A stretch of DNA of 64,000 nucleotides from Candidatus Multivoradales bacterium (lineage in GTDB: Bacteria > Acidobacteriota > Thermoanaerobaculia > Multivoradales > JAHEKO01): positions 336,142-400,141 of the forward strand of contig CBDCXM010000009.1 in the NCBI GenBank assembly GCA_965223855.1, given 5' to 3'. The position numbers and the translations under genes were made by a program. The notes below the pieces were generated by a model. The model worked only from the letters and a program-made list of their open reading frames with translations. It did not search any database and was not told the origin of the DNA. Position 1 is the stretch's first letter; every line of letters begins with the position of its first letter. Shown piece by piece: positions 24,886 through 44,556 of the stretch.

Positions 24886-25003
24886 GGCGTCTCTCCGTCC
24901 GGAGGCGAGGCTACCGCCGTCTCAACTCCCGGCGCCAGTACCGCGGGTGGGGTTGTCGTCCCCGGGACCGGGGGTGCCCGCCCGCGAGGATCTATCGACC
25001 TGC

Positions 25004-26404: not shown

Positions 26405-26507
26405 CGGCGAATCGTATCAACGGCTTCGCCCCACGACTGTGGCAAACGAGGCTTCTCTCGCGACCTGCGCCAGGTCGTCGTCTCCCCGTCTCGTAACATG
26501 GCCGACA

Positions 26508-28685: not shown

Positions 28686-28686
28686 C

Positions 28687-29403: not shown

Positions 29404-29540
29404 CTCGACCGCGATCTCCCGCAGCGCGGCCGCATGCTCCCCCGCTTCGGGATCGGCCGCGAGAAAGCCCGCCTCCAGCCGCTCGGCGACGAGTTCGACG
29501 AGGGCGGCGGAAGGCTCGAACGATGGCGCCCCGCCGCCGA

Positions 29541-30215
29541 TCAGCGCACCCTGACGACGACCCTGCGATTCCGCGGTTCGCGCACCCCGTCTCCCGTCGG
29601 CACCGCCGGTTGCGATTCACCGAACGCCTCGATGGCGATCGCCGCTGCAGGGACACCGGCCTCGATCAGCCTGTCGCGCACCGCTTCGGCCCGTCGCCGC
29701 GACAGGCCGTCGTTGAGCGTCTCGGTCCCCGAAGTGTCGGTGTGACCGGCCACCCGGATCGCCGCAGTCGCACGCTGTCGGAGGTCTTCGAGCAGCTCGT
29801 CCATCGCCCCGTCCGCCCCGCCCGCCAGCCGGGTCGTGCCGAGCTCGAAGAGGACGGTCCAGTCCGTCGGAGCGGGAGGCTCGTGCTCGATCGCCGGAGA
29901 AAAGCCGAGCTCGAGCCCGTCGACCTCCACCGTGCGGATGTCACTCAGATCGTCGAAGGAGACCGCCTCGTAGGCGGAGTCGAGCAGCGCGCTCTCGCCG
30001 TCGCGCGTCACTTCGATCGCGCCGACAGTGCCGTCCTCGTCGGGCAGCAGGACGACGTACTGGCGCCATTCGGGCTCCTCCTCGACCGGCTCTTCGCCAC
30101 CAAGGAGCGGCAGCACCACCGAGTCAGGCGGCCACCAGTGGACCGGCACCCGCTGCGCGGCACAACCTGGAAGCAGGAGAGCTCCGATCAGCACGACCGC
30201 CCGCGCTCGGTTCAT
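29541..30215 (-). CDS. OmpA-family peptidoglycan-binding lipoprotein
   Basis: Lipobox LLLPGC. C-terminal OmpA_C-like domain (RVAGHTDTSGTETLNDGLSRRRAEAV, NRRVVVRV). Confidence 0.65.
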   Translation of the reverse strand: MNRARAVVLIGALLLPGCAAQRVPVHWWPPDSVVLPLLGGEEPVEEEPEWRQYVVLLPDEDGTVGAIEVTRDGESALLDSAYEAVSFDDLSDIRTVEVDGLELGFSPAIEHEPPAPTDWTVLFELGTTRLAGGADGAMDELLEDLRQRATAAIRVAGHTDTSGTETLNDGLSRRRAEAVRDRLIEAGVPAAAIAIEAFGESQPAVPTGDGVREPRNRRVVVRVR

Positions 30216-30658
30216 TCGGCTGCGCTCTCCAACCTCACGAGAAATCGCGTGCCTCGGATCCCGATCGTGCCGACCGGGGTCTCCACGTTCGCCGATTCGG
30301 GCGACAGCTTGGCGATCAGGCCGGAGACGTAGAGCAGCGTGCCGCGGGCGAGGCGGGAGAGGAACGCCCCCTCGCTCGCACCCGCCTCGTAGACGTACTC
30401 GTCGATCGTGAGACTGGTGTCGGGGCCGATCGACAGTCGGGAGTCGTCGATGAACAGCACCCCCAGGGCGCCGTCGGATCCGGTCTCCAGGGTGTCGTCC
30501 TGGAACACCGCGGCGCCCAGCTCGGCAGCGCTGCGCTCCCCGCCCGACACGATGAAGGCACTTCCACTCAACTCCTTGACGTGGCCGACGGGCTCGGACG
30601 CCGCGACGGCACCGGCCGAGAGGACCACGAGAACCAACCAGAGACGGCGATGCATCAC
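30212..30658 (-). CDS. FecR-domain secreted protein
   Basis: Signal peptide. FecR-like beta-sandwich sequence (SGSAFIVSGGERSAAELGAAVFQDDTLETGSDGALGVLFID). ATGA overlap with the OmpA-like gene. Confidence 0.55.
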   Translation of the reverse strand: MMHRRLWLVLVVLSAGAVAASEPVGHVKELSGSAFIVSGGERSAAELGAAVFQDDTLETGSDGALGVLFIDDSRLSIGPDTSLTIDEYVYEAGASEGAFLSRLARGTLLYVSGLIAKLSPESANVETPVGTIGIRGTRFLVRLESAAE

Positions 30659-30784
30659 CTCTCCCTTCCCTTCAGATGGCTGTTACACGACCCTCACAGA
30701 ATAGCACCGCCACCTCGCCGGGCAGCTGCCGACAGCGCCACACAGGTCGAAAAATCGCTATGACAGACTACCGACACCCTACCC

Positions 30785-32596
30785 ATGGCAGATATGGCAG
30801 GTCACACCACAGGCCGCGTCCTCCTCGCCATCGCGCTCGTCGCGGTGATGGCGCCCGCTGCCTGGTCCCAGGAGGAGACGGCGCCGGTCCGCACCGCCGA
30901 CGAGGAGCACGCGGCGCTCTTCCTCGAAGACCGCTTCCCGGCCGCCACGACCTGCGCCACCTGTCACCCCGACCACTACCGCGAGTGGTCGGTGTCGCCG
31001 CACGCCTACGCGCAGATGAGCCCCGTTTTCAACGCCATGCACGGGACGATTCTCAAGCTGACCAACGGCACGAACGGCGACTTCTGCATCCGCTGCCACA
31101 CGCCGGTGGGGATGAACCTCGGCGAGCCCGAGTTCATGAGCAACATGGACCGCCACCCGACCTCGCGGGAAGGGGTCACCTGCATCGTCTGCCACCGGGT
31201 CAATCGCGCCTACGGCAAGCTCAGCGGACGGCTGGCGATCGTCGAGGGCGACGTCTTCGACACCGTCTACGGACCGACCGGAGGCGAGGAGCTCGAGCGG
31301 GTGATCGACAGCTCCGAGTTTCGCGTCAACACCGAGCGGGGGCAGGCCGGGCGGGCGATCCACGCCGAGGCGGAGCCGTTCTTCCAACTCCGAGAGGCGG
31401 GCATCTGCGGAACCTGCCACGACGTCAACCTGGTGAACGGCTTCCGTCTCGAGGAGGCGTTCAGCGAGTTCAAGACGTCACCGGCCGCGCGCCGGGGGGT
31501 GACGTGCCAGGACTGCCACATGGGGACGGAGCCGGGAATCGCCTCCGGGTTCCGCCAGGGGCCGGCGGCAATGATCGGCACCCGGCCGACCGCCGAGCGC
31601 CGGCTCACGAATCACATGTTCATCGGGCCGGATTACTCGATCGTCCACCCGGGGATCTTCCCGCACAACACCCGGGCCTCCGAACTGGCGACGATCCGCG
31701 ACTGGCTCCAGTTCGACTGGGAAGCGGGCTGGGGCACCGACGCCTTCGAGCTCGAAGCGCCGGAGGACTACGAGTTCCCCGAGGTGTGGGCCTCCGCCGA
31801 CGACCGCTACGACGCCCGCGACATCCTCGACGCCAACCTCACGCTGCTCGACGAGGCCAACCAGGCGCGCCTCCAGCTGCTGCGCGCCGGTTACGTTCTC
31901 GGGGACACGAAGGTCGAGAAGAAGGGTCGCGGGCTCGCCTTCTCGATCGAAGTCCGCAACGCCACCGACGGTCACGGCGTGCCGACCGGCTTCGACGCCG
32001 AGAGGCTCGTCTGGCTCGAAGTGACGGTCGCGGACGCGGACGGCGAGGTCGTCTTCCGCTCCGGCGATCTCGACCCGAACGGCGACGTGCGCGACCTGCA
32101 CTCCCTCTACGTCCACAACGGCGAGCTGCCTCTCGACCGCTACCTCTTCAGCCTCCAGTCGAAGTTCCTGACCCGGATGGTGCGGGGCGGCGAGCGCGAG
32201 CAGGTGCTGGCGATCAACTACTCGCCCGACCCTCTGCCGTTCCTGCGACCCTCGGTCACCTCGACGATCCTCACCGGGAGACCTCGCGGCGCCCGCAAGC
32301 ACAAGCAGAACCTCGCTCCGCTCGGTCACCGCGTGGCGCGCTACGAGGTGCCGGCGGCCAAGCTCACCGGGCGCCCGCCGTACCGGGCCACGTTCCGGCT
32401 CAAGGCGGCGATGGTGCCGGTGAATCTGGTCCACGAAATCAAGGACGTCGGGTTCGACTACTTCATGAGCGCTCGCGACGTCGCCGAGCGAGTGGTGGCA
32501 GGCCATCTCGTCCTCTGGGAACGACAGCTCGCCCTCGAAGACGGTGCCGAACCGCCCCAAGCCGAAGAAGCCGTGGATGCCGCCGCGTCGCCCTAG
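30785..32596 (+). CDS. multihaem c-type cytochrome, 5 CxxCH sites, periplasmic
   Basis: Signal peptide. CATCH, CIRCH, CIVCH, CGTCH and CQDCH were counted directly in the translation. Confidence 0.75.
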   Translation: MADMAGHTTGRVLLAIALVAVMAPAAWSQEETAPVRTADEEHAALFLEDRFPAATTCATCHPDHYREWSVSPHAYAQMSPVFNAMHGTILKLTNGTNGDFCIRCHTPVGMNLGEPEFMSNMDRHPTSREGVTCIVCHRVNRAYGKLSGRLAIVEGDVFDTVYGPTGGEELERVIDSSEFRVNTERGQAGRAIHAEAEPFFQLREAGICGTCHDVNLVNGFRLEEAFSEFKTSPAARRGVTCQDCHMGTEPGIASGFRQGPAAMIGTRPTAERRLTNHMFIGPDYSIVHPGIFPHNTRASELATIRDWLQFDWEAGWGTDAFELEAPEDYEFPEVWASADDRYDARDILDANLTLLDEANQARLQLLRAGYVLGDTKVEKKGRGLAFSIEVRNATDGHGVPTGFDAERLVWLEVTVADADGEVVFRSGDLDPNGDVRDLHSLYVHNGELPLDRYLFSLQSKFLTRMVRGGEREQVLAINYSPDPLPFLRPSVTSTILTGRPRGARKHKQNLAPLGHRVARYEVPAAKLTGRPPYRATFRLKAAMVPVNLVHEIKDVGFDYFMSARDVAERVVAGHLVLWERQLALEDGAEPPQAEEAVDAAASP

Positions 32597-34022
32597 GGGC
32601 TTGCTGAGGAACCCTCGTGGGTCGCGCGCCGGCCTCATCTTCGCCGCCGCGACGCTGATGGCGACGGCGATCGGCGCCGCCGAGCCTCCCACCGAGGGAG
32701 ACGGCGAGAGCGCGAGCCGCCTCACCGACGAGGCGATCCCACTGCAGGTCGATGCGGTACCCGAGCGGCCGAAGCCGCCCCTCGAGCTCGGCGAACCGTT
32801 CCTCGGCACCGGCACCCTGCGCCCCGGCTTCCGACTGCCGACCGGCGCCGTGTGGCAGCCGGCGCTCGTCGCTTTCGGCTCCCTGAGGACCGCGGCCCAG
32901 AGCTTCGACTCCGGCGCCGGCAGGGTGAGCGAGCTCGTCGCCCGGTTGGACCTCTTCGCCAACCTTCAGCTCTCGGGAACGGAGCGCGTGGTCGTCGGCT
33001 TCCGGCCGCTCGACCGCGACGGTCGCTTCACCTCGTACGTCTTCTCGAGCGACGTCCCGGGGATCGAGGACGGGTCCCGCGACGAGTGGAACGGCGAGGT
33101 GACGAGCGTCTACTTCGAGGGAGACTTCGGCGAGATCTTCCCCAATCTCTCGAAGGACGACTTCAGCCGCACCGACGTAGGTTTCTCGGCCGGCCGTCAG
33201 CCGCTGATCTTCCAGGAAGGGATGCTGATCAACGACTCGATCGACGGCATCGGGTTGACCCGCAACACGCTTCAGCCGGGCAATCTGTCGAACTTCCGCG
33301 CCACGCTCTTCCTCGGCTTCGACGAGGTCGGCCGGCCCGACCGCATCGACGACGACGCGCGGCTCGTCGCGCTCCTGACCTCGACCGATACCAGGAGGTC
33401 GACCTGGGACGTCGATCTCGCGTGGGTGGAATCGCAGGTCGAGGGAGACCTCCTGGCCGGCGGGATCAGCGCGATTCAGAGACTCGGGCACTACAACACC
33501 GCGTTTCGACTGCTCGGCTCTTCAGCCCTCGACCGGGAAAGCGACCTCGTCTCCGACGGCTGGCTGCTGCTCAACGAGGTGTCGTGGACGCCGCACCACA
33601 GCCACGACCTCGTCTACGTCAACACCTTCGTCGCCGCCGACCGCTTCTCGTCCGCGGCGCGCGGGCCGAGCACCGGAGGCCCGCTCGGGCGCGCGGGCAT
33701 CAACTTCGCTGCCGTCGGGCTGGGCAACTACGGCGCGGCGCTGAGCTCGGAGGCCGAGGACGTCGCCGGCGCGGCGGTCGGCTACCAGCGCTTCTTCGAT
33801 CACACCCGCAAGCAGCTCCTCGTCGAGGCTGGCGCGCGTCTCGGCACCCGTTCCGGGAGCGCCGACTCCGCCGCCGTCACCGTGCGGTTTCAGACCGCGC
33901 TCAAGCGCCACTACGTGCTGGTGCTCGATGCCTTCGGCGGCTACCGCGACCCGGGACCCGCAGCACCCGGCGGCCGGCAGGAGCTACTCGGTGCGCGGGT
34001 CGAACTGGTGACGAAGTTCTGA
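32577..34022 (+). CDS. outer-membrane beta-barrel (porin-like) protein
   Basis: ATG 32577 (alternative GTG 32544). N-terminal signal peptide. Alternating amphipathic strands. C-terminal residue is Phe (TKF), as in bacterial OMPs. Overlaps the upstream cytochrome by 20 nt and the downstream one by ATGA. Confidence 0.55.
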   Translation: MPPRRPRGLLRNPRGSRAGLIFAAATLMATAIGAAEPPTEGDGESASRLTDEAIPLQVDAVPERPKPPLELGEPFLGTGTLRPGFRLPTGAVWQPALVAFGSLRTAAQSFDSGAGRVSELVARLDLFANLQLSGTERVVVGFRPLDRDGRFTSYVFSSDVPGIEDGSRDEWNGEVTSVYFEGDFGEIFPNLSKDDFSRTDVGFSAGRQPLIFQEGMLINDSIDGIGLTRNTLQPGNLSNFRATLFLGFDEVGRPDRIDDDARLVALLTSTDTRRSTWDVDLAWVESQVEGDLLAGGISAIQRLGHYNTAFRLLGSSALDRESDLVSDGWLLLNEVSWTPHHSHDLVYVNTFVAADRFSSAARGPSTGGPLGRAGINFAAVGLGNYGAALSSEAEDVAGAAVGYQRFFDHTRKQLLVEAGARLGTRSGSADSAAVTVRFQTALKRHYVLVLDAFGGYRDPGPAAPGGRQELLGARVELVTKF

Positions 34023-36061
34023 TGGCGGCCGCCCGCCTCCTCGGCCCGGCGGTGGCCGGTCTGCTCGCGATCGGCCCGGTGGCGGCGGCCGAGACCCCGG
34101 CGGCGCGCGACCCGGCGAAGATCGTCACCGCCGAGGCGTGCGGCGAGTGCCATCTCGAGGAGTTCGAGGTGTGGAAGACGACGCCTCACGCACTCGGCTT
34201 CAAGTCGCTCCACCGCAGCGCCGACGCTGAAGAGATCGCGCGCAAGATGGGTCATCGGCTCATCAAGCGCGACAGCCCCTGCCTCGAATGTCACTACACG
34301 ACGGCACTCGACGGCGAGCGCGAACGCGCGGTGTCGGGAGTGTCGTGCGAGTCGTGCCACGGCGCCGGCCGCGACTGGATCGAGGTACACAACGACTACG
34401 GCCCCGACGCCACCTTCGCCACCGAGACCGACGCCCACCGCGAGCAGCGAATCGCCGCCAGCCGAGCGGCCGGGATGCTGCGGCCGACCGACCTCTACGA
34501 GGTGGCCGCCAACTGCTTCGGCTGCCACACGGTGCCCAACGAGGAGCTCGTCAACGTCGGCGGCCACACGACGGGCAGCATCGGCTTCGAGCTGGTCGAG
34601 TGGTCGCAGGGCGAGATCCGGCATAACTTCGTCGCGGCGCAGCGGGGCGGGAGCAAGGAGAACGTCGAGCGCTCCGACGAGCGCAAGCGGCTGATGTACG
34701 TCGTCGGCCGATCGCTCGAGCTCGAGTACGCGCTGCGCGGACTCGCCAAAGCGACCGAGGACGGGGCCTACGCGAAGTCGATGATCCGCAAGGTTCGCAA
34801 CGCGGTTGCCGAGGTCGGCGACATCGCGGCGGTCACGACCCTCGCGCCGGTCAACACCATGACCGCCGCGGTGCGCGAAGCCCGGGTCAGCCAGGGGAAC
34901 GCAGCCGAGCTGCTGGCCGCCGCCGATCGGGTGAGCGCGGCGACCAGAGCGCTGCTCCGGGAGCCGGCCGGCGCGCAGGTGGCGGCCCTCGATCCTCTGA
35001 GACTCGGCCAGCCGCTCCCGGGGACGGATCAACTCGCCGAGGACGAGCGCGAGGGCCTCGAGGACCCCGTCGAGGGCGCGGCCGAGACCGTCCCGGCGGC
35101 CGTCGCCGCGGCGGCCGCACCCGGAGAGCCCGGCGCCACCACCGCCGGCGCCGGCAGCGGTCGGAGCGTGCCCGACTACGCTCGCAAGACCCGGCTGCGA
35201 CCGACCTCGCCGCACCGCACGATCGACGCCGGCGCGTGCAGCGGCTGCCACGAGGAGCAGAACGCCTGGTGGTTCGACGACCCTCACTACGCCGCCGCCG
35301 AGCCGTTTCACGAGGGCGATCCGAAGAACGCCCAGATCGCCCGGCTCTACGGGCTCGCGGCCGGCGAGGCGACCAGGGGAAACCAGCTGTGCATGGACTG
35401 TCACGGCACGGTCGTCACCGGCAAGGAGCGCCGCGAAGTGTGGGACGGGGTGAGCTGCCAGAGCTGCCACGGTGGCGCCGCCGACTACCTCGAGCCGCAC
35501 AAGGAAGGGGACGAGACGGCCGGAGATCAGCGCAGCGGCTACCTCGCCGCACTCGGTCTCGGCATGAAGGAGCTGCGTCGTCCCGAGGTGCGGGCGCGCA
35601 ACTGCGCGAGCTGCCACTACATCACCGACCCGCGTCTGATCTCCGCCGGGCACCCGACCGGCAGGGACTTCCGGATCGTCGAGCGGATGCCGCGGATTCG
35701 CCACTGGGAGCGGGCCGATCTCGACGCCTCCGCCCTCGAGAGCGCCTTCCGCGACGAGGTGGCACGGCGAGGAGCGATTCCCGAGGTTGTCCTCGCCTCG
35801 CTGCCGGCGGGAGAGTCGCCGCTCGCCGCCGCTGCGACGGCGACGCGGACCCGCCGCGCGGGAGGGGGCTCCCGCCCCGTCAGAGCCCTGCCGCCGCGAC
35901 AGCGACCGGTCGATCCGATCGCCATCCCGGACCCTGCGAGCGTCGGCCCGCTCGACCTCCCCCCCTTCGACCCTCCGGCGGACGACGCGCCGCTCGAGGA
36001 GGTCCTGGCGCTGATTCAGCAGCGACTCGCCCTCATCTACGAAAACGTTCAGGAGCCGTGA
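34022..36061 (+). CDS. multihaem c-type cytochrome, 8 CxxCH sites
   Basis: Signal peptide. CGECH, CLECH, CESCH, CFGCH, CSGCH, CMDCH, CQSCH and CASCH were counted directly. Confidence 0.75.
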   Translation: MAAARLLGPAVAGLLAIGPVAAAETPAARDPAKIVTAEACGECHLEEFEVWKTTPHALGFKSLHRSADAEEIARKMGHRLIKRDSPCLECHYTTALDGERERAVSGVSCESCHGAGRDWIEVHNDYGPDATFATETDAHREQRIAASRAAGMLRPTDLYEVAANCFGCHTVPNEELVNVGGHTTGSIGFELVEWSQGEIRHNFVAAQRGGSKENVERSDERKRLMYVVGRSLELEYALRGLAKATEDGAYAKSMIRKVRNAVAEVGDIAAVTTLAPVNTMTAAVREARVSQGNAAELLAAADRVSAATRALLREPAGAQVAALDPLRLGQPLPGTDQLAEDEREGLEDPVEGAAETVPAAVAAAAAPGEPGATTAGAGSGRSVPDYARKTRLRPTSPHRTIDAGACSGCHEEQNAWWFDDPHYAAAEPFHEGDPKNAQIARLYGLAAGEATRGNQLCMDCHGTVVTGKERREVWDGVSCQSCHGGAADYLEPHKEGDETAGDQRSGYLAALGLGMKELRRPEVRARNCASCHYITDPRLISAGHPTGRDFRIVERMPRIRHWERADLDASALESAFRDEVARRGAIPEVVLASLPAGESPLAAAATATRTRRAGGGSRPVRALPPRQRPVDPIAIPDPASVGPLDLPPFDPPADDAPLEEVLALIQQRLALIYENVQEP

Positions 36062-36062
36062 C

Positions 36063-37697
36063 GTGAGCGAGCCGTTCGAACCGGGCAAGACCGTGCTCAA
36101 GCAGATCGAGCAGTACGGCGACCGCTGGAGCGCCTACGGCGCGAGCGAGAGCATCGTCTCGATCTCCGACAGGCTCACCCTCGAGGAGATGAGGGAGATC
36201 GACGTCTTCTCCGACTACGACGACTCGTTCCTCGAGAAGATCCGCTCCGACGTCTCGGTGGCGGTGTGGAAGCCGGACTCGGTGCTGTTCGAGGAAGGGA
36301 GCTACATCGACCTCGCCTTCGTCGTCCTCGAGGGAGAGGTCGAGACCTTCGTCGCCGGGATCGGCAAGGGTGAAGCGACGCCGCAGCCGATCTTCGACGC
36401 CACACGCACCGTGCTGGGCGACGCCGAGACCACCCTGGCGGCCGAGCGCACCACACTGATGCCGACGCTCTCGCCGCCGAGGCGGGCGCCGAAGGAGATC
36501 ACGCTCCTCGCTTCGATGGACTTCGACATGCCGCGCGAAGGCACCGTGAGACTCGGCCCCGGCGAGGTGTTCGGCGAGATCGGCGCCCTGAGCGGCTGGC
36601 CTCAGTCGGTGACGGCACGGACCGTGACCGAGTGCCGTCTGGTGCAGATCCGGATCAACGCGCTCAGGCTGATGAAGCGCAAGTCCGCGGCACTCAAGGA
36701 GCGCCTCGACGAGCGCTACCGCGAGCGCTCGCTGAGCGCGCAGCTGCGGACGACGCCGCTCCTGAGGCGCTCGAGCCCGCTGGTGATCGAGGCGCTCAAG
36801 GACGAGGTCGAGCTCGTCTCCTGCGAGCCGGGAGAGACGGTGCTCACCCACGGCGACGAGCCCGACGCGCTCTATCTGGTGCGCTCCGGCTTCCTCAAGC
36901 TGCTGCAGCCGCTGGCCGACGGTCAGATCGCCGTCTCGTACCTGTCGAAGGGGATGACCCTCGGCGAGGCGGAGCTGCTGCTGCCCGAGATCGACGGCTG
37001 GCAGGTCAGCGCCGAATCGGTCGAGTACAGCGAGCTGGTGCGGATCCCGGCACCGGTCTTCGACAATCTCCTGCGCAACGAGCCGCTGATCGAAGCCGAT
37101 CTTTGGGCGTCGGCTCAGGAGCGCATCCGCGAGTCCGGCTTCGCGCGGCGGCACATCGGTCACGCGGAGTTCCTCCAGGAGGCGCTCGACACCGGGCTCG
37201 TTCAGGGCAACAGCATCCTGGTGATCGACCTCGAATCCTGCACCCGATGCGACGACTGCGTGCGCGCCTGTGCCGACACGCACGAGGGGCGCCCCCGCTT
37301 CGTGCGCGAGGGAGACAAGTACGCCAACCTCCTGATCGCCAAGTCCTGCTACCACTGCCGGGATCCGGTCTGTCTCGTCGGCTGCCCGACCGGCGCGATC
37401 CATCGCGCCGGGCTGAGCGATGTCGTCGAGATCGAAGACGAAATCTGTATCGGCTGCGCGAGCTGTTTCCGCAACTGCCCGTACGACGCGATCGTCATGC
37501 ACGAGACCGGCGACCTGTGGCCGGACGACATGATCCCGGTCGGGCTGCGAGGGCGCGATCGCCAGGTCGCCAGCAAGTGCGACCTTTGTGCCGACACCGG
37601 TCACGGGCCGGCGTGTGTCAGCAACTGCCCTCAGGGTTGCGCCTACCGGGTCGGATCGCTGGAGGAGTTCCAACGGCTGATGAGCGGGGAGAGCTAG
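36063..37697 (+). CDS. tandem cyclic-nucleotide-binding domains fused to a 2x[4Fe-4S] ferredoxin-type domain
   Basis: GTG start 1 nt after the cytochrome stop. Two CAP-like cNMP-binding segments (GEVFGEIGAL; LGEAELL). Cys clusters CTRCDDCVRAC, CYHCRDPVCLVGCP, CIGCASCFRNCP and CDLCAD. Confidence 0.7.
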   Translation: MSEPFEPGKTVLKQIEQYGDRWSAYGASESIVSISDRLTLEEMREIDVFSDYDDSFLEKIRSDVSVAVWKPDSVLFEEGSYIDLAFVVLEGEVETFVAGIGKGEATPQPIFDATRTVLGDAETTLAAERTTLMPTLSPPRRAPKEITLLASMDFDMPREGTVRLGPGEVFGEIGALSGWPQSVTARTVTECRLVQIRINALRLMKRKSAALKERLDERYRERSLSAQLRTTPLLRRSSPLVIEALKDEVELVSCEPGETVLTHGDEPDALYLVRSGFLKLLQPLADGQIAVSYLSKGMTLGEAELLLPEIDGWQVSAESVEYSELVRIPAPVFDNLLRNEPLIEADLWASAQERIRESGFARRHIGHAEFLQEALDTGLVQGNSILVIDLESCTRCDDCVRACADTHEGRPRFVREGDKYANLLIAKSCYHCRDPVCLVGCPTGAIHRAGLSDVVEIEDEICIGCASCFRNCPYDAIVMHETGDLWPDDMIPVGLRGRDRQVASKCDLCADTGHGPACVSNCPQGCAYRVGSLEEFQRLMSGES

Positions 37698-37700
37698 GCC

Positions 37701-38531
37701 TTGACTCACCGCCACCGCAGCGCGCGCCGGTCGAGGGCGGCCGTGATCGCGGCCTCCGTCGCCGCGCTCGCAGTGGTCGTCTACGTCGGCGGCGCGACCC
37801 TGTGGGAGGTGGCTCCGGGAACTCCGTTGAGCATCGGCTTCGGTGTCGCGGCGGCGATCCTCCTTCTCGGGGCAGCCCTCTACGGCGCGCGGCGGCGACT
37901 CGTACGCCTCGCCTCGCGACGCAGCCTCGGGACAGCCTCGAGCTGGCTCGCCTTTCATCTCTACGGCAGCCTCCTCTTCCTGCTGCTCGTGCACCTCCAC
38001 TCCGGCTTCGCCGTTCCGAGCGAAGGGGTGACCTGGTGGCTGTGGGCACTCTCCTGGTGGACGGTCGTCACGGGGGTCGCCGGTCGGCTGCTGCAACTGT
38101 GGATCCCCAGAGCGCTCGGCTCGGGCCTGTCGGTGGAGGTGCTCTACGAGCGCATCCCCGAGCTGATCGAGGAGCTGCGCGAACGGTCGGAGACTCTCGC
38201 CGCCACTTGCGACGAGTCGGTGCAGAATCTCTACTCCAACCAGGTGGCGAAGCAGCTCACGGGGCCGAGGCGCCGCTGGATCTACTTCGTCGATCCGGCC
38301 GGCGGAGCGCGGTCGCAACTGCGTGAGTTCGACTACCTGCGCACGATGCTGCCGCCGGAGGAGCAGGACAAACTCGATCGACTGGCGGGGTACCTGCGCA
38401 CGAAGCTCGAATTCGACGCTCACTACACCCTGCAGGGAGTGCTGCGCTCGTGGCTGTGGATCCACGTCCCGCCGTCGCTGGCGGTGCTCGCCCTGGTCAT
38501 CGTCCACGTCTTCGCGGTCACCTACTACTGA
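37701..38531 (+). CDS. integral membrane protein, putative dihaem b-type cytochrome (quinol-interacting subunit)
   Basis: TTG start 3 nt after the preceding stop. About 5 TM helices. Two helices each carry a His-x13-His pair (H86/H100 and H255/H269), the bis-His spacing seen in cytochrome b and NarI-type dihaem proteins. Confidence 0.45.
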   Translation: MTHRHRSARRSRAAVIAASVAALAVVVYVGGATLWEVAPGTPLSIGFGVAAAILLLGAALYGARRRLVRLASRRSLGTASSWLAFHLYGSLLFLLLVHLHSGFAVPSEGVTWWLWALSWWTVVTGVAGRLLQLWIPRALGSGLSVEVLYERIPELIEELRERSETLAATCDESVQNLYSNQVAKQLTGPRRRWIYFVDPAGGARSQLREFDYLRTMLPPEEQDKLDRLAGYLRTKLEFDAHYTLQGVLRSWLWIHVPPSLAVLALVIVHVFAVTYY

Positions 38532-38546
38532 TGGCGGACTCACACG

Positions 38547-40127
38547 ATGGCGGCTAAGCGTCGGCAGGGGAAGGGCTCCTACGGCCGCTGGCAACTGCCG
38601 GTGGCGAGGCGCTATCTCGTCCCGGGGTCGAGGGGGCGTCGGATGGTCCTGGCGGCCGCGCTCTTCGCGCTCATCCTGGCCGCGGTGGCGGCAGACTTCC
38701 GGCTGCGGCGCGGCAAGGCGCTCTCCAAGGGCGCGCTGTCGTCGCACCACGCCCTCCAGGAGCAGGACTGCGCCTCCTGCCACGTCGAGTTCGATGCGGT
38801 GAGCGACGACCGCTGCTCCTCGTGCCACGAGAAGTTCGGCGATCAGCTCGGCGTCTACACCTTCGCCGCTCACTACCTGTACCGGTCGACCGACTTCCAG
38901 CGCGTCGTCGCCTCGGAACACGAGCTGCCGTGCTCCTCCTGCCATCTCGAGCACGCGGGGCGCGAAGCTCAGATCACCCGCGTACCGGATTCGCGCTGTC
39001 TCGACTGTCACGAATACGGCGCCTTCGGCGACGACCACCCGGAGTTCGCCTTCGCGCGGGAGGAGGCCGCCGAGGCGGGCGGCCTGCACTTCCCTCACAT
39101 CGAGCACATTCGCGAAGTGATGGCGCAGCAGAACCTGCACGACGTCGAGCGGTCGTGCCTCTACTGTCATCGGCCGGAGGCGGACGGGCGCTCGTTCCAG
39201 CCGATCGAGTTCGATCTCCATTGCGACTCCTGCCACCTCACGACGACTACGGCGACGCCGCGGCTGCCGATCGCAGGAGAGGCGGGCGAGGAGGATGGTC
39301 CCGGAGTCGAGACGCTGGAAGCAATCCGCGCTCGCGGCGGCCCGGGCACGGAGTGGGCCTACTACACGAACCCCAACGAGTTCCGCCGCACCGGGCCGCG
39401 GATCCTCAAGTCGCCGCTGCATCACGAGGATCCATGGATTCTCGACAACCTGCGCCGGCTGCGGCGCGAGCTCTATCCCGACGCCGGGCTCGCCGACCTC
39501 CTGACCGCCTCCCCCGATGCCCCGGTGCATCGATTGAGCGAGGTCTACGGCGAGGCGATCGCCACCCTGCAGTCACAGGTCGACGGCCTGCGTGCCCGCC
39601 CCGAGCCGGAGATCCAACGTGACCTCGCGAAGCTCTCCGCGCTCCTGACCGAGGCGGAGCGGAGCCTCCTCGATCCCTATACCCCCCTCGACGAGACCGA
39701 GTTCCAGCTCGCCCTCGAGCGACCCGATCCGAATCTGTCGGCGGAGCAAGTCGACTCGATCGACCGCCTCGCCGACGAGCTGACGACGCCGTGCCGCCAG
39801 TGCCACATCGTCGAGAACGCCACCCTCGCCCGGGTCCAGACCGATCAGCGGACTCTCCTGAGCGCCGAGTTCGACCACCGCGCCCACATCCTCCAGCGGC
39901 GCTGTCTCGACTGCCATCGCGAGATCCCCGTACTCGAGCACCTGAACTCCCCCGAGCCGGTCGATCCCGCGATCGACAACGCCGGCATTCACAACCTGCC
40001 GCGCATCGAAGCGTGCCGGGAGTGCCACCAGCCGCGCCAGGTCTCGGACCGCTGCGTCACCTGCCACGTCTTTCATCCGGACAAGAACCGGCGATCGGAA
40101 CTGCTGCTCTACCTGGAGACCGGCTGA
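38547..40127 (+). CDS. membrane-anchored multihaem c-type cytochrome, 10 CxxCH sites
   Basis: N-terminal TM anchor (MVLAAALFALILAAVAADF). Ten CxxCH motifs were counted (CASCH, CSSCH x2, CLDCH x2, CLYCH, CDSCH, CRQCH, CRECH, CVTCH). Confidence 0.75.
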   Translation: MAAKRRQGKGSYGRWQLPVARRYLVPGSRGRRMVLAAALFALILAAVAADFRLRRGKALSKGALSSHHALQEQDCASCHVEFDAVSDDRCSSCHEKFGDQLGVYTFAAHYLYRSTDFQRVVASEHELPCSSCHLEHAGREAQITRVPDSRCLDCHEYGAFGDDHPEFAFAREEAAEAGGLHFPHIEHIREVMAQQNLHDVERSCLYCHRPEADGRSFQPIEFDLHCDSCHLTTTTATPRLPIAGEAGEEDGPGVETLEAIRARGGPGTEWAYYTNPNEFRRTGPRILKSPLHHEDPWILDNLRRLRRELYPDAGLADLLTASPDAPVHRLSEVYGEAIATLQSQVDGLRARPEPEIQRDLAKLSALLTEAERSLLDPYTPLDETEFQLALERPDPNLSAEQVDSIDRLADELTTPCRQCHIVENATLARVQTDQRTLLSAEFDHRAHILQRRCLDCHREIPVLEHLNSPEPVDPAIDNAGIHNLPRIEACRECHQPRQVSDRCVTCHVFHPDKNRRSELLLYLETG

Positions 40128-40465
40128 TGGGAGCGCGGCTGCTGTGCAAGACCGGCAAGCTGGAGGGGCTCGAGTTCTCGCTCGGCGAAGAGACGACCGT
40201 GGGTCGCCGCCGCTCGAGCGACGCGGTGGTCGACGCCCCCGGGGTTTCGGGCACGCACGCGACGATCCGCTGGTCGGAGGAGGGCGGCCGCTACGAGCTC
40301 GAGGACCTCGGCAGTACCAACGGCACCCTGCTCGACGGCGTCCCCGCCCAGGGCATCGAGCCTCTCGGGACCCTGCACGTCATCACCTTCGGGCGGCACC
40401 ACAGCTTCATCTTCGTGTGGGACGGCGCGACCCCGACCGGCACGACGAGCGCCGAGGAGGAGTAG
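40127..40465 (+). CDS. small FHA-domain protein
   Basis: ATGA overlap with the decahaem gene. FHA signature (TVGRRRSSDAVVDAPGVSGTHATI...DLGSTNGTLLDG). 112 aa. Confidence 0.6.
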   Translation: MGARLLCKTGKLEGLEFSLGEETTVGRRRSSDAVVDAPGVSGTHATIRWSEEGGRYELEDLGSTNGTLLDGVPAQGIEPLGTLHVITFGRHHSFIFVWDGATPTGTTSAEEE

Positions 40466-40519: not shown

Positions 40520-41017
40520 TCAGGACTCTCGCGAATCGGGCGGCGAATCGGGCTTGGCCTTCTTGAGGAAGCGCAGCGTCAAGAAGTTGGCGAGCGTGAG
40601 CGCAACGGCGATCTCGAAACGCCCGACCGCGACCGCCACGCCGACCGCGGCGGTACTCCAGATGCTCGCCGCGGTCGCCGTGCCGTGTACGGTCACTCCG
40701 CGCTTGACGATCGCCCCACCACCGAGGAAACCGACCCCGGTCAGCAGCCCCTGGATGATCCTGCCGAGTTCCGGGCTGGCGTTGCCGAGCACCGAGCGCG
40801 CCAGCAGCACATAGGCGGTGCTCGCCATCGCCACCAGCGGGAAGGTGCGCAACCCGAGACTGCGCTCCTCCTGTTCGCGGTCCCACGCGATCGGCAACGC
40901 AAGCAGAAACGAAGCGCCGAGCAGCAGGAGGTGCTCCAGGACGCTCGCCGGATCGACCAGTTCGCTCAAACCGTCTCCTCCCCCGCTCCCTCGCCGCTCA
41001 TCATGTCGGCGATCCAC
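40520..41017 (-). CDS. MgtC/SapB-family membrane protein
   Basis: MgtC-like TM core (GLLTGVGFLGGGAIVKRG, IWSTAAVGVAVAVG). The start may lie downstream of 41017, because that start overlaps the MarR gene end by 52 nt. Confidence 0.55.
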   Translation of the reverse strand: MDRRHDERRGSGGGDGLSELVDPASVLEHLLLLGASFLLALPIAWDREQEERSLGLRTFPLVAMASTAYVLLARSVLGNASPELGRIIQGLLTGVGFLGGGAIVKRGVTVHGTATAASIWSTAAVGVAVAVGRFEIAVALTLANFLTLRFLKKAKPDSPPDSRES

Positions 41018-41466
41018 TCGACCGCACCGATCAGGTCCTGCCGCTGCCGGTCGTCGAGCGAGTCGAAGCGCCGCTGAAACTCATCGCCCAGTGGCAGCGG
41101 CAGCCGGGCGGCGACCGCTCTGCCCGCCTCCGTCGCGACGATATGCACGTTGCGGCGATCCACCGGGTCGCGAACCCGGTCGATCCAACCCTTCGCTTCG
41201 AGGCGATCGATCACACCGACGAGGGTGCTCGGGCTGACGAAGAGTTGAGCCGCGATCGCGCGGGAGGTCACCGCCTCGCCCGTCACGACAGCGAGCAGGC
41301 ACAGGAGCTGAGGCATCGTGACCCCTTCGCGGTTCGACAGTCCCCGCGAATGGACGTCGAGCGCATGGCCCATGCGGCGAACGGCCGCTACCAGAGCGAG
41401 CGACTGCTCGAGGGAGCGCTCAGTCCTGTCCGGGGGCAAGGCTTCGCTTGACAAGGCCGACACCAA
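40966..41466 (-). CDS. MarR-family transcriptional regulator
   Basis: Winged-helix MarR pattern (TMPQLLCLLAVVTGEAVTSRAIAAQLFVSPSTLVGVIDRLEAKGWIDRVRDPVDRRNVHIV). TTG or GTG start. Confidence 0.65.
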   Translation of the reverse strand: MVSALSSEALPPDRTERSLEQSLALVAAVRRMGHALDVHSRGLSNREGVTMPQLLCLLAVVTGEAVTSRAIAAQLFVSPSTLVGVIDRLEAKGWIDRVRDPVDRRNVHIVATEAGRAVAARLPLPLGDEFQRRFDSLDDRQRQDLIGAVEWIADMMSGEGAGEETV

Positions 41467-41530
41467 TCATTAGTGTAAGAACCGTTACAGCAGTACCGCT
41501 TGCTTCAAGAACAGTCTAAAGGAGCCCCCC

Positions 41531-42469
41531 GTGGACATCAACCAGGCACTCGAGCCCGCGAAAGACCGTCTCCAGGAGTGGGGCGACACCTTGATCGCAC
41601 TGGCGCCGAATCTCGTCGCCGGAATCCTGATTCTCGTCTGTGCCTGGCTCCTCTCGAAGCTCGGCCGCCGAGCGGTCGAGAAGATCGCACTCCGAGCCGC
41701 CGCCCGCAGCGCCATCGCGAGACTGCTCGGCACGGCCACGGCCGTCGGCATCATGGTCGCCGGTCTGTTCGTCGCCCTCGGGGTGCTGCAACTCGACAAG
41801 ACGGTGACCTCCCTCCTCGCCGGTGCCGGTGTGATCGGAATCGCCCTCGGTTTCGCTGCGCAGAGCATGGCGGCGAACATCCTCTCCGGCACCGTCATCT
41901 CGCTGCGCAAGCCGTACAAGGAGGGAGACGTCATCGAGTCGGCGGAGCACTTCGGCACCGTCGAGGTGATCGACCTTCGCGTGACCGAGATCCTCACGCC
42001 CGAGGGCCAGACTGTCCTGCTACCGAACAAAGAGGTTCTCGAGCAGCCGCTCGTCAACTACAGCAGACTCGGACTGCGCAGGATCGATCTCAGCGTCGGC
42101 GTCTCCTACTCCGACGATCTCGACTCGGCGGCCGCTATCGCGAGAGAGGCGGTCTCCGGCATCTCGAGTCGCCTCGAGGAACGCGAGGTCGAACTCTTCT
42201 ACACCGAGTTCGGGTCGAGCTCGATCGACTTCACGGTGCGCTTCTGGATTCCGTTCGAGCGCCAGAGCGACTACCTGTCGGCCCGATCGGAAGCGATCGT
42301 CCGCATCAAGAAGGCGTTCGACGCCCACGACATCACCATCCCGTTCCCGATCCGGACTCTCGACTTCGGCATCGAGGGGGCTCAGACGCCCGATGCCGTG
42401 ATCACCGCCCTCCCCGCCCTCGGGAGCCCGACACCTCATCATCACACTACGGAAAGGAAGGCCTCATGA
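41531..42469 (+). CDS. mechanosensitive ion channel, MscS family
   Basis: GTG start with AAAGGAG Shine-Dalgarno. Three N-terminal TM helices plus the MscS beta-domain (GDVIESAEHFGTVEVIDLRVTEILTPEGQTVLLPN). Confidence 0.75.
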   Translation: MDINQALEPAKDRLQEWGDTLIALAPNLVAGILILVCAWLLSKLGRRAVEKIALRAAARSAIARLLGTATAVGIMVAGLFVALGVLQLDKTVTSLLAGAGVIGIALGFAAQSMAANILSGTVISLRKPYKEGDVIESAEHFGTVEVIDLRVTEILTPEGQTVLLPNKEVLEQPLVNYSRLGLRRIDLSVGVSYSDDLDSAAAIAREAVSGISSRLEEREVELFYTEFGSSSIDFTVRFWIPFERQSDYLSARSEAIVRIKKAFDAHDITIPFPIRTLDFGIEGAQTPDAVITALPALGSPTPHHHTTERKAS

Positions 42470-42783
42470 ACCGTCATCGCAGAAGACAGGTCCAGCAGCG
42501 ACTGAACTCCGAGCATCACCGGCTGGAGGCTCGTCTCCACCTCGTCAAGGCGCGCATCGCCCGGCTGCGAGCCGAGCTCGCCGGCACCTCCCGTTCGGCG
42601 CTCGACCGGGTCGAGGAGCGCAAGCAGAAGTTCGAGCGCGCGCTCGACCGCCTGGAGCAGGCCGGGGCGGACACCTGGGAGGCGGCCGGGCGTCACGCCT
42701 CGAGCGCCTGGAGTCACCTCGAGAGCGCCTACCGCGATCTCACCCGCGGCCTCGACCGCAACTTGTCGACCGACGCCGGCTAA
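42466..42783 (+). CDS. hypothetical small coiled-coil protein
   Basis: ATGA overlap with the MscS gene and a GGAAAGGAAGG Shine-Dalgarno. Highly charged helical sequence. No recognised domain. Confidence 0.4.
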   Translation: MNRHRRRQVQQRLNSEHHRLEARLHLVKARIARLRAELAGTSRSALDRVEERKQKFERALDRLEQAGADTWEAAGRHASSAWSHLESAYRDLTRGLDRNLSTDAG

Positions 42784-42820
42784 ACAACCGGACGTCCGGG
42801 CTACTGCTCCGGCGCCGGCC

Positions 42821-44440
42821 TCAGTCGAGGATCGGATCCTTGTAGCCCGTGAGCTGCCAGCGGATCAGCGATACCGGAATGACTCCGGCGGCGTCGACTT
42901 CCTCGAAGAAGCCCGAGAGGGTGAAGTCGTCGCCGAGCTGCTCCGAGCGCTCCCGCAGCAGCTCCTCGATCAGCACCTTGCCCGTGATGTAGCTCGTGCC
43001 GTAGCCCGGCTGGCGCAGGTAGAGAAGCTGTTCGAACCCGAGCAGGTCGAGGTCCTCGCGCATCCAGCCCCGCGGCGTCCATTCGACGTGAAAGTCGCGC
43101 GCCTCGGCCATCGTCTTGTCGTTGGAGTGAACCCACAGCGACCCGAGGCCGCGCGCGGCGCGCTGCGCGAGCATGATCCAGACGATCTCGCGCACCCGCG
43201 GATTGTCGTCATAGAGGCCGGCGTGCATCATCATCTCCTCGACCCCGGTCGCCATCCCCTCGGCGCGCGAGTCGAAGATGTTGTAGAGGAGCGGCCCGCG
43301 GCGGATCGGGCTGGGGTGCGGGTCGCTCTCCATCCGTGCGAGATCCCACCAGTGGTAGAAGTGGGTCCACAGCGTCATCGGCTCGAAATGGATCGCCGTG
43401 CGGAAGAAGTTGCGCTCCTGCTCGGGAACAAAACTGCCGATCCGGGCCCGTAGCGCCGGGTCCATGTAGTCCTTCATCTCGAGGACGTCGTTGTCCTCGA
43501 GGAAGCGCAGGTAGTCCGTCACCGCAGCGTTGGCCCGCTCGTCGTACTCCTCGGGCGAGGCGATCGCCACGAGAGGCGGCAGATCACGGTTGCGGTGCTC
43601 CTCGAGCCGCAGGGAGGCGTGCGCGCGGTCGAGCTCACGCTCGAGCAGGCGCACCTCGTCCTCCCAGGTCAGCGGCACCAGGTGGACGTTGTGCAGATAC
43701 CAGGTGTAGTGCTCGCGGCCGATGCCGGAGGAACCGGTCTTGGACGCCGTCTGCTGCTCGAGCCAGCCGATGAAGTCGACCGTCGCCCGGTGGGCCGCGG
43801 CGCGCGCCTCGGCAAGTGCGTCGCCGGCGCCCTCGATCCGATCGGCGAGCCCGGCCAGAACTTCGGCCTGGTCGCGCAGGTCGCCGATCCCCGCTTCCCA
43901 CAGCTCTCGCGCGTTGCCGGTCAGGTTGCCGCGAGCCTGGGCCAGAAGCGGCGCGATGGTCGAGAGTTCCGAACGCAGCTTCTCCGCAGCAGCCTCGGTG
44001 AGCGGGAACTCGTAGGTCCACAACTCGACCACGCCGTGATGAGTCGGCCCCTCGTGAGCCGGTGTGTCACTCTGATAGGTCCACACCGACTTGTAGAAGG
44101 CGGGATCGCGCTGCCACGGCCGGAGCACCCGCAGGTTGAAGTCGAGCCCGTTCATCTCGGCGCGCACGATGTGGTAATCCACCTGCCGTTCGACCGGCCA
44201 ACCTTCCGGGTCGATCGCCGCCAGCCGCTGCTGTAGCGCTTCGAGACCGGTCCGCTGTTCGGCCAGGGCAGCCTCGGTGTAGTCGGGCGCACCGTCGAGA
44301 AGTCGCGGTCGCTCCAGCTGGCGCCAGTCGGCGAAGAGATCGAGCAGCTCTTCGTAGCCGTCGGCTGCCGCGGGTGAAACGGTCGCGGCGATCGAAACAA
44401 CGGCAAGCAGGGTCGCGATCGTGAGTCGTGGGCTCTTCAT
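42821..44440 (-). CDS. secreted protein, DUF885-like (uncharacterised; putative hydrolase)
   Basis: Signal peptide. 539 aa. General resemblance to the DUF885 family (weak recollection). Confidence 0.4.
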   Translation of the reverse strand: MKSPRLTIATLLAVVSIAATVSPAAADGYEELLDLFADWRQLERPRLLDGAPDYTEAALAEQRTGLEALQQRLAAIDPEGWPVERQVDYHIVRAEMNGLDFNLRVLRPWQRDPAFYKSVWTYQSDTPAHEGPTHHGVVELWTYEFPLTEAAAEKLRSELSTIAPLLAQARGNLTGNARELWEAGIGDLRDQAEVLAGLADRIEGAGDALAEARAAAHRATVDFIGWLEQQTASKTGSSGIGREHYTWYLHNVHLVPLTWEDEVRLLERELDRAHASLRLEEHRNRDLPPLVAIASPEEYDERANAAVTDYLRFLEDNDVLEMKDYMDPALRARIGSFVPEQERNFFRTAIHFEPMTLWTHFYHWWDLARMESDPHPSPIRRGPLLYNIFDSRAEGMATGVEEMMMHAGLYDDNPRVREIVWIMLAQRAARGLGSLWVHSNDKTMAEARDFHVEWTPRGWMREDLDLLGFEQLLYLRQPGYGTSYITGKVLIEELLRERSEQLGDDFTLSGFFEEVDAAGVIPVSLIRWQLTGYKDPILD

Positions 44441-44556
44441 GGCATCCTCCCGGGTAGTCGAACCCCGAGTGTGCCAGAGCCGGCGCTTCTCCAGAGCCGA
44501 GGCCTGGCCGGAGCCGTACCTTCTTCTGCAAGCGGAGACACGGACAAGGAGATGCC

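Follow-up and report, generated by a model that had tools for sequence, protein, structure and literature searches.

The open reading frame (ORF) 36063-37697, on the plus strand of a 64,000-nt stretch of DNA from a Candidatus Multivoradales bacterium (Acidobacteriota, Thermoanaerobaculia; contig CBDCXM010000009.1, positions 336,142 to 400,141; hereafter the window, to which coordinates refer unless a locus is named), translates from a GTG start into a protein of 544 amino acids in which two cyclic-nucleotide-binding (CNB) domains precede a cysteine-rich iron-sulphur (Fe-S) domain. That the ORF is a genuine gene is confirmed by its GC content at third codon positions (GC3) of 0.91, as in other real genes of this 68% GC window, by a Shine-Dalgarno sequence 'caggag' 8 nt 5' of the GTG, by the tight spacing to the upstream cytochrome gene, whose stop lies 1 nt before the GTG, and by an identical 544-amino-acid protein (P0001) in public databases. 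The translation carries no signal peptide or twin-arginine translocation (Tat) motif, which points to a cytoplasmic location. Its Pfam matches include no helix-turn-helix or other DNA-binding family, the C-terminus being the Fe-S domain, and a reading as a CRP/FNR transcription factor was dropped on that ground.

The operon and the identity of the gene

The ORF stands in a run of genes resembling the ptdABCDEFG operon of a preprint, in which PtdA is pentahaem, PtdB a porin, PtdC an FAD/NAD(P)-binding oxidoreductase, PtdD a periplasmic tetrahaem protein, PtdE a protein with cyclic-nucleotide-binding domain(s) and 4Fe-4S clusters, of which two were counted, PtdF a membrane 'ferric reductase-like' protein and PtdG decahaem, and the function of which the authors describe as 'completely unknown' (bioRxiv 10.1101/2023.11.21.568154). 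With gene frames set by GC3 frame analysis, the operon in the window reads A-B-D-E-F-G-FHA on the plus strand:

30785-32596, plus: PtdA-like pentahaem cytochrome c, 603 amino acids, five CXXCH, signal peptide (frame from GC3; Pfam Cytochrome_C554 and NapC/NirT)
32544-34022, plus: PtdB-like putative outer-membrane porin, up to 492 amino acids, start uncertain, ending ...VTKF (frame from GC3)
34022-36061, plus: periplasmic octahaem cytochrome c in the PtdD position, 679 amino acids, eight CXXCH, signal peptide (Pfam Cytochrome_C554 and Cytochrome_C7/c3)
36063-37697, plus: PtdE-like protein, tandem CNB domains and predicted four-cluster Fe-S domain, 544 amino acids, no signal peptide
37701-38531, plus: PtdF-like inner-membrane protein, 276 amino acids, five predicted transmembrane helices (annotated elsewhere as 262 amino acids from the GTG at 37743)
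38547-40127, plus: PtdG-like decahaem cytochrome c, 526 amino acids, ten CXXCH by motif count, N-terminal membrane anchor
40127-40465, plus: small FHA-domain protein, 112 amino acids (Pfam FHA, E 1.5e-15), its start overlapping the stop of G (TGATG)

An earlier note on this DNA, made from the letters alone, had placed the gene inside a cytochrome operon, and the eight CXXCH motifs of the upstream gene and ten of 38547-40127 bear this out. From B onwards the genes are separated by gaps of at most 15 nt or overlap by 1 nt; the start and frame of the octahaem gene follow from a GC3 switch at ~34,030, and its ATG shares 1 nt with the stop of B. How far A lies from B hangs on the start of B, which is uncertain. 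The PtdB-like protein has no Pfam match, and its putative assignment as a porin comes from the preprint description together with its C-terminal Phe. Among related loci the pentahaem protein A is 62-77% identical and syntenic in 15, and the PtdB-like gene is kept between A and D in 16.

The 544-amino-acid protein combines CNB with 4Fe-4S domains, a PtdD-like multihaem gene comes before it, a PtdF-like gene and then the decahaem PtdG gene come after it, and the pentahaem and putative porin genes lie further upstream. Gene order and domain set being those of the preprint operon, we assign 36063-37697 to the PtdE type and its operon to the ptd type, with no linked PtdC and with an octahaem gene at D. 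Table S7 of the preprint gives carriers among Alpha- and Gammaproteobacteria, Nitrospirales, Planctomycetota, Verrucomicrobiales, Gemmatimonadales and Acidobacteriota, and in the Acidobacteriota carriers Sulfidibacter corallicola and Acidobacteriota LB_AC_1 the accessions run in the order A, B, D, E, F, G, x, C (bioRxiv 10.1101/2023.11.21.568154). Exactly this order is seen in the related loci, where x is the small FHA gene. Literature searches for other descriptions of the CNB and Fer4 architecture or of this operon gave only that preprint; the kind is already named and uncharacterised, and the system is unusual but not a new discovery.

The longest ORFs of the region (24872-28804, 30676-32607 and 32852-36061, all plus) were rejected as genes, since GC3 shows them to be in wrong frames or over-extended. 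Long ORFs in non-coding frames (up to 1,310 amino acids), 36033-39530 on the minus strand among them, have Arg/Pro/Gly-rich translations that are a product of the 68% GC; off-frame tblastn of these false ORFs yielded 40-56% 'identity' in related loci, which misleads an ORF-based reading.

The CNB tandem, the Fe-S domain and the membrane partner

Within the PtdE-like gene the following elements were recognised, phosphate-binding cassette (PBC) equivalents among them, with model confidence given as the AlphaFold2 predicted local distance difference test (pLDDT):

36180-36707, plus: CNB domain 1 (CNB-1), ~residues 40-215, split by an insert (Pfam stretches; pLDDT >85 outside the insert)
36372-36527, plus: disordered S/T/P-rich insert in CNB-1, residues 104-155 (pLDDT 30-45)
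36573-36620, plus: PBC equivalent of CNB-1, residues 171-186, GEIGALSGWPQSVTAR, Glu present, Gln181 in place of Arg
36756-37082, plus: CNB domain 2 (CNB-2), ~residues 232-340 (best Pfam stretch 252-339; pLDDT >90)
36963-37022, plus: PBC equivalent of CNB-2, residues 301-320, GEAELLLPEIDGWQVSAESV, G-E-x-E with invariant E304, no Arg
37209-37652, plus: predicted four-cluster ferredoxin-like domain, residues 383-530, 16 invariant Cys in four groups and invariant C526

The domain search that the earlier note had proposed returned both cNMP_binding and Fer4 models from Pfam, and its two CAP-type CNB domains hold up well. The cNMP_binding match (E 1.2e-26) falls into three stretches, with an insert of ~50 amino acids dividing domain 1, and an AlphaFold2 model built from an alignment of 104 homologues contains two confident beta-barrel CNB domains (pLDDT >90). 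By this model and by Foldseek both have the eight-stranded beta-barrel CNB fold, and in the PDB they come closest to the CNB-A/B tandem of PKA/PKG regulatory subunits (E ~1e-16). The CNB-1 insert is bracketed by the conserved motifs RPIFDxSRT and EITFLATMDFDLP, is 50-76 amino acids long across the family (taken over reference positions 96-150), and is enriched over the whole protein in Ser plus Thr (19.5% vs 12.4%) and in Pro (11.9% vs 4.5%).

A canonical cassette contains a Gly-Glu pair, the Glu of which contacts the ribose 2'-OH, and an Arg that pairs with the cyclic phosphate; both CNB domains have the former and neither has the latter. Column counts for the close family are over the 104 homologues, and the distant comparison uses 131 of the best representatives, at ~30-57% identity. 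The CNB-1 cassette, F-G171-E172-I-G-A-L-S-G-W-P-Q181-S-V-T-A, aligns with F-G-E-L-A-L-I-Y-G-T-P-R-A-A-T-V of PKA RIalpha; G171, E172, I173, G174, G178, W179, P180 and S182 are invariant, and the Arg position is Gln in 103/104. In CNB-2 the pattern is G301-E302-x-E304-L-L...W-[EQ]-[V/S/T]-[T/S]-A317, four residues longer than usual, with G301 and E304 invariant and E302 present in 99/104. The five commonest residues at its position 315 (V/S/T/L/A) account for 95/104 sequences, Arg not being one of them, and the alignment shows no conserved Arg elsewhere in the CNB-2 cassette. The distant representatives are different: their CNB-1 cassette is mostly the canonical F-G-E-[MI]-[SA]-[CA]-L-x-R-x-P-R-[ST]-A-T-V, with the Arg in 112/131, and the CNB-2 of many carries canonical R-T-A. 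The Arg is missing only in the Ptd-type branch ('GWPQ') and in a sister branch ('RYP[A/H/V]SATV'). With the distant superfamily mostly canonical and the Ptd branch uniformly non-Arg, the loss is, from the alignments, specific to its branch and was held fixed thereafter. The near-invariance of the CNB-1 cassette points to a constrained pocket.

A precedent exists for cassettes of this kind. In the PKA regulatory subunits of trypanosomes (PKAR) a polar residue stands in for the cassette Arg and Glu for the Ala202 of RIalpha, and these proteins bind inosine, guanosine and adenosine at nanomolar affinity, not cAMP; cyclic-nucleotide binding is regained when A, R and A are put back at the three cassette positions (PMC10959531). 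Trypanosome PKAR are among the Foldseek structural matches of the present protein. The CNB-2 of the Ptd family has both the G-E-x-E and the non-Arg parts of their signature, and CNB-1 has the non-Arg part only. The earlier note had suggested that the redox subunit is gated by cAMP or cGMP, or else uses a CAP-like fold for another ligand, and had asked after the cassette Arg and Glu. The Glu is kept and the Arg is not, and with the Arg absent from both CNB domains of this branch direct cAMP/cGMP gating of the 544-amino-acid protein is unlikely. The alternative of another ligand survives, with some support from the near-invariant CNB-1 cassette and from the G-E-x-E, non-Arg signature of CNB-2. 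Given the canonical cassettes of distant relatives, gating by cyclic nucleotides (cNMP) may hold for the wider superfamily.

Several Fer4 models, including Fer4_11, Fer4_7 and Fer4_9, match the C-terminal domain above cut-off. Its cysteines form four groups, C393-x2-C-x2-C-x3-C403, C429-x2-C-x4-C-x3-C441-P, C462-x2-C-x2-C-x3-C472-P and C506-x2-C-x8-C-x3-C522-P, in which all 16 Cys are invariant in the close family; among the distant representatives 14 are invariant and two are kept in at least 90%. Sixteen conserved Cys in four groups, as in HycB, NrfC and DmsB, imply four predicted [4Fe-4S] clusters, not two, so that the four Cys groups of the dicluster ferredoxin seen by the earlier note are real and its count of 2x[4Fe-4S] is to be revised. 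The best solved relatives are HycB3 (7qv7_A, E 5e-16), HycB4, NrfC (2vpw_B) and formate hydrogenlyase subunit 2. Because all NCBIfam equivalog scores are far under their cut-offs (the best, TIGR02951 DmsB, reaches 64 bits vs a cut-off of 214), the domain is judged to share its fold class with four-cluster subunits and to belong to none of the named enzymes. A seventeenth cysteine, C526 (CPQGC526), lies directly past the fourth cluster motif; it is present in 104/104 close homologues and is mostly Ala in distant ones.

The partner encoded next, the PtdF-like protein, has no Pfam match even at E<=10, and its homologues are all annotated as hypothetical. Its AlphaFold2 model (pLDDT 93.6) has five long membrane helices and a helical domain of ~100 amino acids between helices 4 and 5. 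Lys plus Arg number five at the N-terminus, six in the 2-3 loop, and none in the 1-2 loop, the 3-4 loop or the C-terminal tail, a distribution that under the positive-inside rule places the N-terminus and the helical domain on the predicted cytoplasmic side. In an alignment of 117 homologues three His (H86, H100, H255) never vary and a fourth, H269, occurs in at least 90%, and these four His, but not H98 and H241, are also kept in fused F-like domains that are only ~25% identical. H86 and H100 lie 14 residues apart on transmembrane helix 3, and H255 and H269 14 apart on helix 5, both helices running from inside to outside; this geometry is that of two bis-His b haems stacked across the membrane, and PtdF is a putative di-haem b protein. 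Two His pairs 13-14 residues apart on two transmembrane helices are a feature of the ferric reductase type. Foldseek gave no significant fold match for PtdF, to NOX, STEAP or MsrQ or otherwise, and no Ferric_reduct Pfam match was found; 'ferric reductase-like' may describe how PtdF works, membership of that family not being demonstrated.

Single-chain fusions of E and F, 771-828 amino acids long, occur in several independent clusters (P0109, P0110, P0241 and P0248), and two distant proteins with canonical cassettes (P0327 and P0333) also finish in an F-like domain. In all of the E-F fusions the C-terminus of E joins the N-terminus of F, an order that fits a cytoplasmic E on an F with its N-terminus inside. 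Physical coupling of E and F is, by these natural fusions, well supported.

Related loci and flanking genes

In order to compare loci, one genome per species was surveyed, which gave 31 loci encoding a relative 53-72% identical to the PtdE-like protein. They come from Acidobacteriota (Thermoanaerobaculia, Vicinamibacteria, Acanthopleuribacteraceae), Ignavibacteria, KSB1 and others, the closest relatives of the window being Acidobacteriota/Thermoanaerobaculia metagenome-assembled genomes (MAGs). The order A-B-D-E-F-G-FHA is kept in about 20 of the 31, as far as contigs reach; an FHA homologue is found in 20/31 and lies directly 3' of G in 16. An Acanthopleuribacteraceae MAG (L007) has the same synteny with an E 60-61% identical; this family is also that of Sulfidibacter corallicola. 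Past the small FHA gene, at least 17 related loci carry PtdC 3' of G (~750 amino acids; tblastn with the PtdC of locus L019). In L019 (12530-14770), in L008 (13079-15376) and in at least 15 other loci it consists of Pyr_redox_2, FHA and a C-terminal 2Fe-2S domain (Fer2), and redox enzymes do not usually contain an FHA domain. The gene after PtdC in L019 (14822-16825, minus) encodes a Ser/Thr kinase bearing a TonB_C domain. Ser/Thr kinase genes are also found close by in at least 12 loci, as weak matches (27-31% identity) that are not clearly orthologous. The place held by PtdC in related loci is taken in the window by 40520-45018:

40520-41017, minus, and 44557-45018, plus: two MgtC-family genes
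40966-41466, minus: MarR regulator
41531-42469, plus: MscS-type channel, 312 amino acids
42821-44440, minus: DUF885 protein

The 312-amino-acid gene was considered as PtdC and rejected as an MscS-type channel.

A second type of locus was found in L009 (3160-13426) and in L012, L015, L016, L017, L020 and L028, labelled 'Cytophagia', KSB1 or unclassified. Here the PtdE-like gene has a short CNB-1 insert and adjoins a cytochrome of ~376 amino acids with three CXXCH (possibly four haems) and a 1,226-amino-acid multihaem protein; a 340-amino-acid protein and a Ser/Thr kinase follow, the C-terminal domain of the kinase looking to be of sulfatase-modifying-factor type by eye only. A PtdF homologue (P0226) is encoded elsewhere on the L017 contig.

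The family as a whole is large. More than 2,000 matches were obtained at E<=0.001, the best 120 of them all full-length and 59-66% identical, and an exhaustive profile-free search, made against a library clustered at 50% identity, yielded 7,010 matches at E<=1e-3 and 677 clusters at E<=1e-30. Many distant CNB-FeS homologues in other architectures keep the canonical PBC Arg. Some carry input modules N-terminal to the CNB-FeS unit: Fer2, FAD_binding_6 and NAD_binding_1 in P0268, and a NuoG-like 2Fe-2S/4Fe-4S module in P0255, P0260 and P0283. In these N-terminal fusions the CNB domain(s) lie between the input module and the four-cluster wire, as expected for a gate or docking element. Carriers of the family belong to marine, sediment and soil lineages, and the family as a whole is biochemically uncharacterised.

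Just upstream of the operon, at 25004-30658, lies a cluster of cNMP-signalling character:

25004-26404, minus: Ser/Thr kinase fused to a canonical CNB domain, PBC FGETAIMTSEPRTASV with Arg
~26451-28685, plus: CHASE2 domain and class III adenylate/guanylate cyclase
28687-29403, minus: 238-amino-acid gene without Pfam match, 'HDIGY' motif
29541-30215, minus: OmpA-family lipoprotein
30212-30658, minus: FecR-domain protein

In the 8-kb flanks of the 31 related loci none of the cyclase, FecR or OmpA genes was found, and local cNMP wiring was rejected as a candidate, the cluster having no conserved link to ptd loci. Elsewhere in the window GC falls to 0.62, vs ~0.68 in the remainder, across two genes that may be horizontally acquired:

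19826-21151, minus: FG-GAP-repeat protein
21132-22280, minus: protein with a proprotein-convertase P-domain

Proposed electron path, possible regulation and known systems

What the sequences show is domain content, conserved residues (Cys, His and cassette positions), synteny and fusions; from these we infer that the ORF probably encodes the cytoplasmic Fe-S subunit, of PtdE type, of a conserved porin-multihaem-cytochrome system, in which it would act as an outward wire with the CNB tandem as a non-cNMP module. The electrons would be supplied in the cytoplasm, in most related loci by PtdC, a predicted NAD(P)H flavoprotein with FHA and C-terminal 2Fe-2S domains; in the window the donor might be encoded elsewhere or be a soluble ferredoxin. 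An input of NAD(P)H or ferredoxin type is suggested by the flavoprotein and 2Fe-2S domains of PtdC in related loci and by the input-module fusions of distant homologues. The C-terminal domain, with its four putative [4Fe-4S] clusters, would dock as an electron wire on the cytoplasmic face of PtdF and pass electrons to two b haems held by H86/H255 on the inner side and H100/H269 on the outer side. From there they may proceed to the membrane-anchored decahaem PtdG, the octahaem and pentahaem cytochromes, the porin and a periplasmic or extracellular acceptor, and the path as a whole would be a NOX-like means of exporting reducing power without quinones. On general bioenergetic grounds, Fe-S clusters of low potential and the membrane potential would both favour flow in the outward direction. 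If this is so, cytoplasmic reducing power crosses the inner membrane to multihaem cytochromes, bypassing the quinone pool, by a route that is electrogenic, conserves no energy itself and would be wasteful unless tightly controlled, and such a need for control would account for the sensor-type module, the FHA proteins and the kinases that accompany it.

Several points weigh against this proposal. A tblastn search with the PtdC of L019 detected no homologue anywhere in the 64-kb window, which bears on the donor here; AlphaFold2 models the Fe-S domain with little confidence (pLDDT 40-65); and in the second group of loci E stands beside a tetrahaem gene with no adjoining F or G. A role of PtdA in the nitrogen cycle has also been raised (bioRxiv 10.1101/2023.11.21.568154).

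As to regulation, we take the CNB tandem to be other than a canonical sensor of cAMP/cGMP; most likely it would serve the input protein as a docking or allosteric module, and it may respond to an uncharged ribose-containing ligand. The FHA proteins and nearby Ser/Thr kinases may add a layer of phosphorylation, possibly on the disordered CNB-1 loop. Phospho-Thr/FHA-dependent assembly of the input module on E is a reasonable if speculative hypothesis, prompted by the FHA genes, the FHA domain of PtdC, the kinases nearby and the S/T/P-rich loop. The idea of the earlier note that metabolic control is placed on the electron-transfer subunit itself remains plausible on this evidence. A broader proposition, which we hold to be doubtful, is that CNB and four-cluster proteins with PtdF-like di-haem domains make up a large class of ligand-gated transmembrane electron conduits, the canonical-cassette branches being switched by cAMP/cGMP and the Ptd branch having been retuned, as was trypanosome PKA, to an uncharged ribose-containing metabolite; if true, a small molecule acting on the redox subunit itself gates a quinone-independent pathway from NAD(P)H to the outside.

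Three other explanations were weighed. It is possible, at a rather low level of likelihood, that the CNB tandem has no small-molecule ligand and serves as a scaffold, dimerisation module or docking platform for PtdC or ferredoxin, with any regulation exerted only through the FHA proteins and Ser/Thr kinases. In its favour, nucleotide binding is lacking in many CNB-homology domains, the operon includes conserved FHA genes, a further FHA domain is found within PtdC, kinase genes recur near the loci as noted above, and the disordered loop has conserved flanking motifs. However, near-invariance such as that of the CNB-1 cassette G-E-I-G-A-x-S-G-W-P-Q-S-V-T-A-R would be expected of a ligand pocket, and a specific phosphorylation motif was not found in the loop: a PKA-like site, R[RK]x[ST], was dropped as a candidate since it occurs in only 23/104 loops, no commoner than elsewhere in the protein (30/104).

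That the module runs inward or serves a periplasmic enzyme, feeding a catalytic pentahaem PtdA that acts on a nitrogen or sulphur compound, or importing electrons from outside, would accommodate the nitrogen-cycle suggestion for PtdA, but we regard it as distinctly unlikely. With a putative porin gene and three proteins that carry 23 c-type haem motifs between them, the operon looks like a porin-cytochrome conduit, and inward flow to low-potential Fe-S clusters would, on general bioenergetic grounds, oppose both the membrane potential and the redox gradient.

Least probable, indeed quite improbable, is a redox subunit directly gated by cAMP or cGMP, with Gln181, Ser182 and Glu172 holding the cyclic nucleotide in CNB-1 and the CHASE2-class III cyclase 7 kb upstream giving the signal: although the domains keep their CNB fold and a nearly invariant cassette retains Gly-Glu and the Ser/Thr that follows the Arg position, the cyclase lies just upstream of the operon and canonical cassettes in distant relatives suggest that cNMP binding may be ancestral, the phosphate-neutralising Arg is absent from both CNB domains throughout the Ptd-type branch, the CNB-2 Glu sits where trypanosome PKA regulatory subunits exclude the cyclic phosphate, the 8-kb flanks of the 31 related loci yielded no such cyclase, and a signal would more obviously be received by the neighbouring kinase, which has a canonical cNMP domain itself. 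Through that kinase, with its canonical CNB domain and the cyclase beside it, an influence of cNMP in the window could be indirect.

Compared with the ptd operon of the preprint, the likeness of the present system, read as an outward conduit with a PtdE-type subunit, lies in the domain content and gene position of E, and the differences lie in a D-position gene that is octahaem and of 679 amino acids, not tetrahaem, in the lack of a PtdC in the window, and in the 16 conserved Cys, which indicate four clusters where two were counted. To that description our analysis adds a count of four clusters, a branch-specific loss of the cassette Arg within a superfamily that is mostly canonical, a G-E-x-E signature in CNB-2 like that of trypanosomes, the fusion of E to F, the four His conserved in F, the presence of FHA and 2Fe-2S domains in PtdC, and the size of the CNB-FeS superfamily.

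With HycB, HydN, NrfC and DmsB the Fe-S domain shares four Cys groups of the same spacing, its best sequence matches being HycB3, NrfC and formate hydrogenlyase subunit 2, and NCBIfam also matches DmsB, AegA and DsrO. Unlike those subunits it has no Tat signal and no adjoining molybdo- or Ni-Fe catalytic subunit, it is fused to CNB domains, and its partner, in place of an NrfD or DmsC, is a small membrane protein with two His pairs. The PKA/PKG regulatory subunits resemble it in having two successive CNB domains (CNB-A/CNB-B) and give the best structural match, at an identity of only 14-17%; here CNB-1 carries an insert of 50-76 amino acids and the output domain is an Fe-S wire. Trypanosome PKAR share the exchange of the cassette Arg for a polar or small residue and, in CNB-2, a Glu at the RIalpha A202 position, whilst CNB-1 has Gly, not Glu, at that position. 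Neither a kinase partner nor an inhibitor sequence is present here.

The resemblance to NOX, STEAP and MsrQ-Fre and to MtrCAB or porin-cytochrome conduits is one of logic only: an NAD(P)H flavoprotein would pass electrons to two stacked b haems on two His-bearing helices and on to an outside acceptor, and, as in MtrCAB and other porin-cytochrome conduits, a porin and multihaem cytochromes lie beyond the membrane step. PtdF differs from NOX, STEAP and MsrQ in having five helices, not six, no Ferric_reduct Pfam match and no significant fold similarity, and the path proposed here differs from that of NOX, STEAP and MsrQ-Fre in that a CNB-bearing Fe-S wire would be inserted between the flavoprotein and the haems.

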